The translations under genes were made by a program, and so were the position numbers. A stretch of 63,973 nt of DNA, filler included, from Reclinomonas americana ATCC 50394 (taxonomy: Eukaryota): NCBI GenBank assembly GCA_048213135.1. It is 18 parts of 18 records of this genome, joined end to end, with 100 filler letters (N's around TTAATTAATTAA, not from the genome) between each part and the next. Parts side by side here need not be neighbours in the genome. Positions count along the whole stretch, not along the records: positions 13,233 to 21,760 come from AFZH01018880.1; 17 more parts are not named here. One strand, 5' to 3'. Positions 14,163 to 20,496 of the stretch are shown in pieces. The notes beneath the pieces are model-generated. The model worked only from the letters and a program-made list of their open reading frames with translations. It ran no database searches and was not told where the DNA came from. Positions within the stretch are counted from its first letter, which is position 1; each line of letters starts with the position of its first letter.

Positions 14163-17100
14163 ATGAGGTGCGTCTTTTCCTTGTTTGGCGCGTGTGTCTC
14201 TTTCTCCTCCTCACTGCATGGCCATGGATGTGCTGTCGGCAGTGCACCTGCCCCGCCCGAGAGGGAGAAAGGATGGAAGATGGGTCAGCGTGGTGATGTG
14301 CAAGCACTGCGCGAGTTGGTGTCGCGAGAGGGTGCACAGACACTGCTGAAGCAGAAGGAGTTTGATGATCACGGCAGGTCGGCATTTTACTGGGCTGCCT
14401 CCAGAGGCCACCTCGCGGTGCTGAAGTATCTGTGGGAGGAGAGTGGCATCGGCGCGCAGCTCGCTCATCTTGTGCAGTACCTTGGGTGGACACCGTTGAT
14501 GATAGCTGCCTACAATGGGCGACAGCAAGTGGTGGAGTGGTTTCTCGCTGATGAGCGACGATACAATGTGTGGGCGGTCACCAACGATCGCGCCAATGTT
14601 GCACGGTCCACAGCACTGCATTCCGCCGCCGGCAAAGGCCACATTGACGTTGTGCAGCTGCTGGCCACTCGCCACCCTGGCCTGATTCCGATGGTCGACA
14701 AGAAGGGCAAGACAGCAGCTGAGGTGGCTCGCGGCAAGGACCGCTTGAAAGTGGCCTGGTTGCTTGAGCGCCTCGCAGTGCAGCTTCCAGGTGTGCTTCC
14801 CATTTCTCTCACTCTTTTCATCGTGTCTTGCTCACGCACTCTTGCTGCCGCAGAGGCACGGCAACTGGTAAGACAGATCTGCTTATCTCACGTTTGCGAG
14901 TTCATGGTGCTCACTAGGGTTGAACATCAGGTTGCCGGCGAGGACGCCCCTGATGCCCACGTTCGACTTGGCGCCGACGTGCATCGACAACAACGGTGCG
15001 TGAGGCTGTGTGTTGACTGTGCTACTCTTCACATATCTCGCTGATGTGTGACGTGTGTTTTACAGCGAGAAAGCCTTCGAGATGGCGTGGGACAACAATG
15101 TGCAAGCGCTGCGTGAGCTGGTGGCGCGTGAGGGTGCACGGGTGCTGCTCAAGAGAGACGAGATGGTCGCCGTTGGTGGTCCGGCATTTATGACGGCTGC
15201 TTCGTACGGTCACCTCTCGGTGATGGAGTACCTCTGGGAGGAGAGCGGCGTCGGGGTGCAACTCGCGCACATGGTGGATGGCGTTGGTAACACGCCGCTG
15301 ATTGTTGTTGCCAGCTGGGGGCATCTGCATATTGTGGAGTGGCTACTTGCCGAAGAACGGCGATACAATGTGTGGGCAGTCGACAGCGACCACGACACTG
15401 CACTTCATCATGCTGCCGTTCATGGTTATGAAGATATTGCGGAACTCCTGGCCAGTCGTTTCCCCGACCTCCTTCCACTTGTCAACAAGAAGGGCAAGAC
15501 GGCGACGGATGTGGCGCGTGACAATGGCCACCAGCAGGTGGCCGAGCTCCTCGATCGCCTCGCTGCGCTGCCTCCAGGTGCAGTCTCAGCCTTCTCGACA
15601 CGGGGGTTTCCTCATATTTGCTGACACATTTCCTGGTGATACACAGCAATGCAACCGCTTCCGCCGGTGAGTCAAAATTCATTCGCTTTATCGATTGTCT
15701 ACTTCCGACGTGCGTATTGTTTTCTTGATTGAACTGCAGCGAGAGGACGTGGCAATACAACGCGACGCGCACCAGCAGCGGTTTGTTTGCGTCAGTGCTG
15801 CAGCAAGTCAATCTACAACACCCATGGCATTTGAATCTTTGCAGTCGACGTCAATGGAGGAAGTCATCATGCAAGCTGGCAGCGGATGGTAATTTGAAGG
15901 CCCTCCGCGGGTTGGTGGCACGTGAGGGTGCACAGACACTGCTGAAGCAGAAGGAGTTTGGTGATCACGGCAGGTCGGCATTTTACTGGGCCGCTGCCTA
16001 CGGTCACCTCGCCGTGGTGGAGTACATGTGGGAAGAGAGTGGCGTCGGTCTGCAACTCGCCCACACATCGTCGACAACAGTGGCTGGACACCGTTGATGA
16101 CAGCGGCATTCAATCGGCGACCGCAAGTGGTGGAGTGGTTTCTCGCTGATGAGCGACGATGCAATGTGTGGGCGGTCACCAATGATCGCGACAGTGATCC
16201 GCGGTCCACAGCACTTCATTACGCGGCCAGCAAAGGCCACGTCGACGTCGCACGACTGCTTGCCACTCGATTTCCCGACCTCATTCCGATGGTCAACAAG
16301 AAGGGCAAGACAGCAGCTCAATTGGCTCGTGGCAAGGACCGCTTGGAAGTGGCAGAGATGCTTGAGCACCTCGCAATTCAGCTTCCAGGTGGATCTGCTG
16401 CTTCTCGACTCGCATGTGCTTCTCTCGCACTCAATTTATCGTGCCTTGCTCACGTACTCTTGCTTGCGCAGAGGCACGACAACAGGTGAGACTGATCCTC
16501 TTGTCTCACTTGTGCGAGTCCATAGTGTTCGCTGAAGTGAAACATCAGGTTGTCAACGAGGACGCCCTCGGTGCCCGCCTTCGACTTGGCGCTGACGTGC
16601 AACAAAAACAACGGTGTGTTGATCGTACTACCCTTCTCATATCTCGCTGATGTTGTCTCGTGTGCTTTGCAGTGAGAAAGCCTTCGAGATGGCGTGGGAC
16701 GGCAATGTGCAAGCGCTGCGTAAGCTGGTGGCGCATGAGGGCGCACAGACGCTGCTCAAGAGAGAGGACATGGATGCCCGCGGGAGGTCGGCATTTTTAT
16801 CAGCTGCTTCGTATGGCCACCTCTCGGTGATGGAGTACCTCTGGGAGGAGAGCGGCGTTGGCCAGCAACTCGCACACATGGTGGACGGCAATGGCTGCAC
16901 ACCGTTGATGACGGCTGCCTACTACGGGCATCTCCAAGTGATCGAATGGTTGCTTGCCGATGAGCGACGATATAACGCGTGGGCAGTCAACAGCGACCGC
17001 GACACCGCGCTTCATAATGCTGCCTGGAGCGGGCAAGATGTAACTGCGGAGCTCATGGCCATTCGTTTCCCCGACCTGATTCCCCTGGTCAACAAGAAGG

Positions 17101-20100: not shown

Positions 20101-20496
20101 CACTCTTCTTGCAAACGGGCGAGATCCGCGTCTCCATGGACGTGTACGCCTTTGGGTTGATCGTGCTGCAGTTGTTGACTGGTCGCGATGCTCGCGAACT
20201 CGCGCCTCAAGCACGACGATGGGAGCGAGCACTGGACACGGTGGATGCAGTCGGTGAGGCCGATGTGGTGGCCGGCGAGTGGCCAGTGGAGGTGGCACGA
20301 GGCATGATGCGGCTGGGGGTGCAGTTGCGTGTCGCTGTGAATGTGCACGTGTGCTTGCAAGTCAGTGTGCTCATCTGCCGATGTGTCGATCAGGTGTATG
20401 TCGCTGTACGATGAGGAGCGTCCCACATCGGCCACTGCGTGCGCTGTGATGCGCGAGCTGCGGGAGAAGCTGGGTGGATTCACCGTGGAGCTATAG
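14163..20496 (+). CDS. Ankyrin-module array (5 modules), coiled coil and RLK/Pelle/IRAK-like (pseudo)kinase; apparent 2-nt frameshift in module 3
   Basis: 5-nt first exon ATGAG. ANK exons at 14243-14790, 15066-15577, 15845-16388, 16673-17184 and 17439-17974 (G.TPL..AA..G and TALH.AA..G motifs), joined in frame by mini-exons. Coiled-coil exon at 18135-18351. Kinase motifs: [93 protein letters not shown] at 20496. Confidence 0.85.

Follow-up and report, generated by a model that had tools for sequence, protein, structure and literature searches.

In Reclinomonas americana ATCC 50394 (assembly GCA_048213135.1), a gene on the plus strand seems to encode a soluble protein in which an array of ankyrin (ANK) repeat modules is followed by a dimerising coiled coil and a probable pseudokinase of the RLK/Pelle/IRAK type. 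This reading, in which all parts belong to one gene, is given a probability of about 60%. Judged by sequence comparison, the kinase comes closest to RLCK-type kinases with a U-box from plants. The gene runs from 14163 or 14280 to 20496 of the window, i.e., the whole stretch of 63,973 nucleotides (nt) that was analysed. Eighteen contigs, 1.2-9.8 kb in length, make up the window, and contigs that adjoin here may lie apart in the genome. Each is separated from the next by a spacer (e.g., 13133-13232 and 21761-21860) whose core, TTAATTAATTAA, is a stop in all six frames and has 44 N on either side. The whole gene and a truncated paralog are located on one contig, 13233-21760 (8528 bases; AFZH01018880.1). 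Because the window is made of joined short contigs, the true genomic context can be taken from this contig only. A tblastn search of the window found relatives of the gene's exons nowhere beyond this contig, and an Rfam scan of the contig matched nothing.

The gene model was built from stop-to-stop open reading frames (ORFs) and the raw sequence, with every intron of the GT-AG type. It comprises 21 exons, or 22 if a short ATGAG leader is used. Five encode ANK modules, six the kinase and one the coiled coil, and the other nine are micro-exons of 14-65 nt. The 20 introns have all 40 GT-AG splice dinucleotides intact; 19 measure 54-87 nt and one, inside the kinase, 867 nt. Intron phases are consistent throughout, and the spliced frame is open except for a single frameshift in module 3. 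The predicted product has about 1345 amino acids (aa), or 1346 positions when the break is read as X. ANK modules, short linkers, coiled coil and kinase together fill the entire protein length. The five ANK exons of about 510-550 nt and the heptad-rich exon described in the original prediction were recovered (the former with 511, 512, 544, 512 and 536 nt, the four intact ones matching Ank_2). The nine micro-exons, the frameshift in module 3, an NFG motif in the kinase, and the division of the kinase into six exons with an 867-nt intron had been missed. The exons upstream of the kinase are as follows.

14163..14167, plus strand: possible true start, ATGAG followed by the donor GTGCGT (11-mer ATGAGGTGCGT and frame arithmetic).
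14243..14790, plus strand: ANK module 1 (type A), 511 nt counted from the safe start codon at 14280, with a possible exon start at 14243; Ank_2, E 1.8e-20.
14854..14867, plus strand: micro-exon 1a, 14 nt (AG/GT borders, required phase; length equal in three copies).
14931..14995, plus strand: micro-exon 1b, 65 nt (splice borders and phase, conserved length).
15066..15577, plus strand: ANK module 2 (type B), 512 nt; Ank_2, E 1.7e-33.
15647..15666, plus strand: micro-exon 2a, 20 nt (splice borders and phase, conserved length).
15740..15780, plus strand: micro-exon 2b, 41 nt (splice borders and phase, conserved length).
15845..16388, plus strand: ANK module 3 (type A), 544 nt, frameshifted (tblastn to module 1 in two frames).
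16472..16485, plus strand: micro-exon 3a, 14 nt (splice model).
16549..16613, plus strand: micro-exon 3b, 65 nt (splice model).
16673..17184, plus strand: ANK module 4 (type B), 512 nt; Ank_2, E 4.7e-27.
17239..17258, plus strand: micro-exon 4a, 20 nt (splice model).
17334..17374, plus strand: micro-exon 4b, 41 nt (splice model).
17439..17974, plus strand: ANK module 5 (type A), 536 nt; Ank_2, E 1.4e-19.
18036..18058, plus strand: micro-exon 5, 23 nt, linker to the coiled coil (splice model).
18135..18351, plus strand: coiled-coil exon, 72 aa (heptad register; predicted parallel homodimer).

The four intact modules matched the Pfam family Ank_2 with E-values from 1.4e-19 to 1.7e-33 and scores of 70.8-115.5 bits, the curated cut-off being 27.3. 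In tblastn, modules 3 and 1 share 72-78% identity, with the similarity split over two frames. The module types alternate in the order A-B-A-B-A; the closest pairs of the same type share 72-78% identity and pairs between types about 55% (tblastn). Counted by eye, there are about five ANK repeats per module and about 25 in total. Besides ANK repeats, the Pfam scan of the exons gave only coiled-coil-like and kinase matches; no death domain and no U-box were found in any exon. A word-index search of ANK module 4 against longer proteins returned five generic ANK proteins, with no family member among them.

The micro-exons follow a regular layout, with 14 + 65 nt after modules 1 and 3, 20 + 41 nt after modules 2 and 4, and 23 nt after module 5. 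They are required because direct joins of the large exons clash in phase; once the micro-exons are included, the phases fit exactly. Their lengths are identical across copies, and several flanking introns differ by insertions or deletions. Each cassette of a module and its two micro-exons measures 573 nt, or 621 nt when the two extra bases of module 3 are not counted. Since both lengths are multiples of three, cassettes could be duplicated, lost or skipped in frame. Long ORFs on the minus strand (e.g., 14211-14831 and 18819-19652) were rejected as genes, being mirror frames of coding exons or low-complexity intron sequence.

At the 5' end, the leader at 14163 can be joined in frame to the acceptor before 14243, which adds residues ahead of the Met at 14280. 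There are three occurrences (13867, 14163 and 20799) of the 11-mer ATGAGGTGCGT, in which a splice donor follows the start codon directly. With two copies upstream (13867 and 14163), the gene appears to carry a duplicated leader.

A different partition of the locus, in which the ANK array and the coiled-coil kinase are two neighbouring genes, is highly unlikely. The gaps from module 5 to micro-exon 5, from there to the coiled coil, and from the coiled coil to the first kinase exon measure 61, 76 and 76 nt; they are intron-sized, bordered by GT-AG, and matched in phase, whereas some 300 nt separate this gene from the next one. The phase at the end of module 5 is open, one base over, and the coiled-coil exon and the first kinase exon have no start codon context. 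What speaks for two genes is that the sole expressed-sequence relative spans the C-terminal 97 aa alone, and that no transcript joins the parts.

In the preferred one-gene model, the kinase is encoded by six exons, K1 to K6.

18428..18621, plus strand: K1, with the YS..DI..AT..F N-terminal extension, the Gly-rich loop, the beta-3 Lys and the alpha-C Glu (phmmer, alignment).
18687..18796, plus strand: K2, with the tyrosine gatekeeper in CLVYQAM (phmmer, alignment).
18872..18989, plus strand: K3, with the R.QI.LGIAEG..FLH motif (phmmer, motif).
19077..19184, plus strand: K4, with the HRDLKPSN catalytic loop and GNFG in the place of DFG (Pfam, phmmer, alignment).
19185..20051, plus strand: purine-rich intron of 867 nt (splice model).
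20052..20323, plus strand: K5, activation segment through the alpha-H region (phmmer, library search, alignment with an expressed sequence tag (EST)).
20394..20496, plus strand: K6, with the stop TAG at 20494-20496 (gapless EST alignment across the K5/K6 junction).

The protein ends 33 aa beyond exon K5. The 867-nt intron is about 10 times longer than the other introns of the gene, and a 77-nt tandem repeat was observed in it at 19385-19530 (1.9 copies, 82% matches).

The kinase had been predicted to be of the RLK/Pelle/IRAK type, and its membership of this class is supported as far as it is testable, by two hallmarks and by its nearest relatives in the PDB and in the protein library, which are RLK, RLCK or IRAK proteins. 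To assess the class, each exon was run through phmmer (E up to 10) against the PDB, represented by 177,635 distinct sequences. All 19 matches of K1 were RLK/IRAK chains, i.e., plant receptor kinases or IRAK1/IRAK3; the same was true of all seven matches of K2, all five of K3, and 59 of 60 among the matches listed for K5. IRAK1, IRAK3 and IRAK4 chains occur among the matches of K1, K3 and K5. PDB kinases outside the RLK/IRAK family were not found with K1, K2 or K3 at this threshold. Four of the five kinase exons searched thus match only or almost only RLK/IRAK chains. The fifth, K4, matched MAP kinases in 60 of 60 cases among the matches listed; it is non-discriminating because it holds the HRDLKPSN catalytic loop.

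The first hallmark is the N-terminal extension in K1, which aligns with EFSY..L..AT..F (EFSYDELATATDNF) of a LysM receptor kinase. Its columns are shared by most of the 77 relatives aligned (A in 65, T in 69, F in 67). In the superfamily, this extension is described as an alpha-B helix plus an ST motif with the consensus FSYEELEKAT[D/N]NF[S/D] and the signature TxxF, and that study did not identify it in the structures of Roco and Raf kinases that it examined (PMC10916322). The second hallmark is the tyrosine gatekeeper in K2, where CLVYQ aligns to LLVYE of BRI1; 59 of the 77 relatives have Tyr in this column. Tyrosine as the gatekeeper was reported as seemingly exclusive to IRAK when compared with more than 400 human kinases (PMC3182414), and it was used to assign BAK1 and SERK1 to the IRAK family (PMC3517577). 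The two sequence motifs named in the original prediction, YS..DI..AT..F and R.QI.LGIAEG..FLH, were located in K1 and K3, respectively.

In the library search, a HMMER pass with K5 over 1.84 billion protein representatives gave 575 matches at E up to 0.001, and the spliced kinase domain was compared with 150 listed of these. Among the matches listed, the best full-domain identities, 33-36%, were to plant U-box kinases of the PUB33 type, other plant kinases, and a TIR-kinase-RING protein of Pyramimonas. Of 20 library representatives checked by name, the named kinases were all from plants or green algae, several of them with a U-box, except for a jakobid EST. This EST peptide of 98 aa, from Reclinomonas americana according to its EukProt name, is the sole close relative among the matches listed. 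Over the final 97 aa it shows 72% identity, with one 1-residue gap, and has the same C-terminus. The alignment crosses the K5/K6 junction (RLGVQ/CMSLYDE) without a gap. As the one piece of expressed-sequence support, it backs the last intron, whose donor is weak. A word-index search of K5 against longer proteins gave two matches, none of them close, and in the ESM Atlas K5 matched generic kinase clusters only.

A kinase phylogeny had also been proposed. A quick maximum-likelihood tree was computed with the query and 77 of the 150 domains, 73 with alignments of less than 240 residues being left out. The query falls in a clade of 15 rows with plant U-box kinases and the Pyramimonas protein (Shimodaira-Hasegawa-like approximate likelihood ratio test, SH-aLRT, 94). 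This gives the placement within the family; the tree is unrooted, stays within the family without other TKL families, and the query branch is long (1.4), so that monophyly with RLK/Pelle is not established. Because the tree is unrooted, the assignment rests on nearest neighbours and hallmarks, not on a rooted phylogeny. The long branch, best relatives of only 33-36% identity, and the MAP-kinase-like catalytic-loop exon would suit a lineage-specific TKL kinase which came to resemble RLK/Pelle/IRAK by convergence or through shared ancestral features. This seems improbable, as two independent hallmarks, the alpha-B/TxxF extension and the tyrosine gatekeeper, are present (PMC10916322; PMC3182414), and K1, K2 and K3 match PDB kinases of the RLK/IRAK family only, at E up to 10.

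Within the RLK/Pelle/IRAK assignment, the catalytic state was deduced from the alignment with the 77 relatives. Three glycines of the Gly loop, the beta-3 Lys, the alpha-C Glu, and H, R and D of HRD are present, as are the Lys and Asn of the catalytic loop, the alpha-F Asp and the alpha-H/I Arg. The Asp of DFG is replaced by Asn (GNFG); 66 of the 77 relatives have Asp at this position and five have Asn. The Glu of APE is replaced by Leu, which is weakly informative because Glu is kept in only 39 of the 77 relatives. The DFG aspartate binds Mg-ATP, and its change to Asn is a classic kinase-dead substitution. Since this residue is Asn here, a pseudokinase or a weak enzyme is likelier than a robust enzyme, and the domain is probably one of the two. 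NFG is no bar to membership of the RLK/Pelle/IRAK class, because the family includes pseudokinases. IRAK2 and IRAK3 are such pseudokinases. Family members without catalysis are described in PMC7955167.

The frameshift in module 3 results from two bases which are extra relative to the other modules, in a CACACA run from 16062 (about 16062-16070), and stop codons follow in frame about 10 codons downstream. It is either an assembly error or a recent inactivation of this copy. If it is real, the gene might be a recently inactivated pseudogene, with NFG as part of the decay and with working members elsewhere, such as the downstream paralog or the gene of the EST. Tandem families often carry dead copies, and Asn in a position where most relatives have Asp would fit such a fate. 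The pseudogene explanation is possible, though unlikely. The lesion is single in about 4040 coding nt, 40 of 40 splice dinucleotides are intact, and module 3 compared with its closest modules has a ratio of nonsynonymous to synonymous substitution (dN/dS) of 0.37-0.40, no higher than that of intact modules. The five relatives with Asn also speak against decay at the DFG position, and a base-calling error is plausible because the assembly is a chain of short contigs.

The heptad-rich exon would supply the dimerising part of the preferred architecture. Its best heptad register has hydrophobic residues at 13 of 23 a/d positions. Two copies were predicted to form a parallel, in-register homodimer with a score of 0.61, the best of three controls reaching 0.00. 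The mark used for this score was reached by 21 of 30 proteins solved as same-chain pairs and by none of 23 solved as single chains; on eukaryotic proteins, it was reached by 17 of 29 pairs and none of 30 single chains. Along residues 1-71, the predicted interface recurs at intervals of 3-4 residues, and its contacts are i-to-i. The partner has a predicted local distance difference test (pLDDT) value of 90 and three runs agree in contacts; like the score, these express model confidence and are not measurements. Compared with the kinase relatives, the exon showed no convincing similarity (best E 0.001 over 39 aa).

The protein is probably cytosolic, as had been predicted from the apparent absence of a signal peptide and a transmembrane segment. 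No membrane segment was found in the product, the highest 19-residue Kyte-Doolittle mean being 1.5, within a kinase helix. Neither candidate N-terminus, with the leader at 14163 or the Met at 14280, resembles a signal peptide. The signal peptide, ectodomain and single transmembrane helix of strict plant receptor-like kinases were thus not found in this protein. The layout is of the RLCK type, because the top hydropathy window is only 1.5 and lies inside the kinase.

Downstream of the gene, a second member of the family begins on the same strand.

20799..21760, plus strand: tandem paralog, cut by the contig end (ATGAG/GT start, ANK module, and homologs of the linker micro-exons).

It starts 302 nt past the stop codon (20494-20496), close to the 300 nt predicted, and its first ANK module (20990-21499) is 74% identical to module 1. 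The family therefore has at least two genes side by side in tandem, in agreement with the expectation of a tandem family.

The modules evolve under purifying selection, because Nei-Gojobori dN/dS lies between 0.22 and 0.44 in all 15 module pairs. A set of 20 codons, chosen after the ligand-contact positions of designed ANK proteins, changes faster. In the four closest pairs, pooled dN/dS is 1.19 at these canonical binding positions and 0.32 elsewhere (proportion of nonsynonymous differences 0.30 and 0.12), counts which comprise about 40 pooled synonymous sites from four non-independent pairs, so that positive selection and relaxed constraint are inseparable. The fast positions fit a variable binding surface, and the variable recognition array claimed in the original prediction receives modest support from them.

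Moreover, module 1, module 3 and the paralog resemble one another in a mosaic fashion, stretches of 95-100% identity alternating with others of 60-70% (profile over 15845-16672). The 63-nt intron at 16486-16548, for instance, is identical to that at 21578-21640 in 62 of 63 positions, in a region with 82% identity overall. This mosaic suggests gene conversion among the modules and the paralog. The possibility that the conserved 63-nt intron is a functional element was rejected, as mosaic identity all along the modules fits gene-conversion tracts.

Binding-surface codons with a dN/dS of 1.19, tandem duplication, and mosaic identity between copies might also be expected of an active cytosolic sensor kinase resembling those of innate immunity, in which the ANK array recognises foreign or altered-self proteins and the ligand activates the kinase. 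The class itself serves plant pattern recognition and animal Toll-like receptor signalling, and a green-alga relative couples the same type of kinase to a TIR domain. This proposal, made from the sequence alone, is nevertheless doubtful. The Asp of DFG is missing, a dN/dS near 1 is equally expected under relaxed constraint, ANK arrays are general protein-binding scaffolds, and plant RLK/Pelle kinases also serve development and other signalling. A broader version is more doubtful still. It holds that a flagellate of deep-branching position, probably a jakobid, has dimeric receptors in its cytosol encoded by genes in tandem, and that their cassette-built array of about 25 ANK repeats varies in its contact residues and is rearranged through gene conversion; the array would detect foreign or altered proteins and pass the signal to an IRAK-type (pseudo)kinase hub. 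The immune-sensor role is speculation, weakened by NFG and by the frameshift. If the broader version were true, Discoba would already possess a module resembling innate immunity and based on the kinase used in Toll signalling and plant pattern recognition.

Several points weigh against the one-gene architecture with a probable pseudokinase that is favoured here. The gene model rests on splice borders and phase logic in genomic sequence. When copies are compared, the micro-exons (82-88% identity) do not clearly exceed the flanking introns (67-91%); support for the micro-exons is therefore logical, by phase and length, and not comparative. One 63-nt 'intron' is open in frame in three of three copies and could be coding. 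AlphaFold modelling of module 2 from a single sequence reached a mean pLDDT of 55.6, too poor for a repeat count. A single residue carries the pseudokinase call, and some activity can persist in kinases whose DFG motif is altered. The frameshift in module 3 and NFG could jointly mean a dying copy. To these points are added those named above, i.e., the MAP-kinase matches of K4, the unrooted tree with its long query branch, and the choice of positions after designed ANK proteins and the small, non-independent sample behind the contact-position ratio.

In the favoured reading, the ANK array would be a protein-binding platform whose contact positions vary among modules, and the coiled coil would make the protein a parallel dimer. 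The kinase domain might then act as a docking or allosteric pseudokinase, like IRAK2/3 or ILK, rather than as an efficient enzyme. The array could grow, shrink or be skipped by whole cassettes with the frame kept, and the modules and the neighbouring paralog may swap sequence by gene conversion.

Plant pattern recognition and animal Toll/IL-1 signalling have RLK/Pelle/IRAK kinases at their core, and the history of these kinases outside plants and animals is thinly documented. The member described here, which carries both hallmarks, extends the record to a part of the eukaryote tree where sampling is poor. The gene is also an example of an evolvable repeat array, with frame-preserving cassettes, mosaic identity and fast binding positions. 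Immunity in a protist is not yet demonstrated by it.

Other observations were made in the window. A long open frame at 28265-29410 (plus strand) encodes cysteine-rich EGF-like repeats (CSGHGTCQSDGTCLCTGDYTNASC and similar) and runs into a contig end. An exon pair at 57414-57863 (plus strand) belongs to a proteasome alpha-type subunit, its best match in an index of 5.8 billion proteins being 70% identical. Many contig ends and intergenic stretches contain microsatellites of the (CT)n and (GT)n types (e.g., 13248-13322 and 13590-13630), and those at contig ends probably explain the assembly breaks.

Among known systems, the closest to the protein described here are the PUB33-type plant U-box kinases. 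They provide the nearest full domains (33-36%), share the clade of 15 rows, and are cytosolic. The AT..F extension, the Tyr gatekeeper and the HRDLKP-type catalytic loop are common to both. In contrast to them, the gene from this non-plant protist has no U-box, carries five ANK modules before the kinase, and has NFG.

ILK and RIPK4 are among the proteins known to combine ANK repeats with a kinase or pseudokinase. ILK consists of an N-terminal ANK array of about five repeats and a pseudokinase scaffold of the TKL group, without a known coiled coil. It resembles the protein modelled here in that an ANK array is fused to a TKL-group kinase fold which acts as a scaffold and not as an enzyme. ILK belongs, however, to a different TKL family, and its chains were not among the PDB matches listed for K1, K2, K3 and K5.

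The Pyramimonas protein, P0115 of P. parkeae, is the second-best full-domain match (34%) and a member of the same clade. It is likewise soluble and has an N-terminal interaction domain, but TIR and RING domains stand where the present protein has ANK modules and a coiled coil. P0115 is itself an unusual green-alga protein, with TIR_2, an IRAK/RLK-type kinase and a C3HC4 RING within 517 aa.

Animal IRAK/Pelle kinases share with the predicted product the alpha-B/TxxF extension, the Tyr gatekeeper, solubility, and an N-terminal interaction region that drives assembly. They differ from it in having a death domain where ANK modules and a coiled coil are found here. Furthermore, no Toll/IL-1 context is known for the gene described here, and its similarity is higher to plant than to animal members.

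IRAK-class kinases in protists are already known from oomycetes. Phytophthora infestans is reported to have five, all predicted inactive and four of them with a transmembrane segment, and a separate TKL, PITG_06288, of an oomycete-specific subfamily with 15 ANK repeats on the N-terminal side of its kinase (PMC3019232). According to that account, the IRAK class and the ANK array occur in different proteins in P. infestans; here, both are combined in one soluble coiled-coil protein. The hallmark extension was also reported in apicomplexans (PMC10916322), Dictyostelium is described as having no IRAK orthologs (PMC1420674), and a preprint on eukaryote-wide kinomes counts IRAK4 among the kinases of the eukaryotes' last common ancestor (10.1101/2020.01.27.920793).

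ANK repeats, and hence the ANK-coiled-coil-kinase combination, were not found in the 40 closest relatives scanned with Pfam. In the literature covered, to which the classic RLK/Pelle surveys do not belong, no ANK-coiled-coil-IRAK-type protein was found among the papers listed, nor was the kinase family found in jakobids. As predicted from its sequence, the combination of ANK modules, coiled coil and RLK/Pelle/IRAK-type kinase would thus be a new architecture within a known kinase family.

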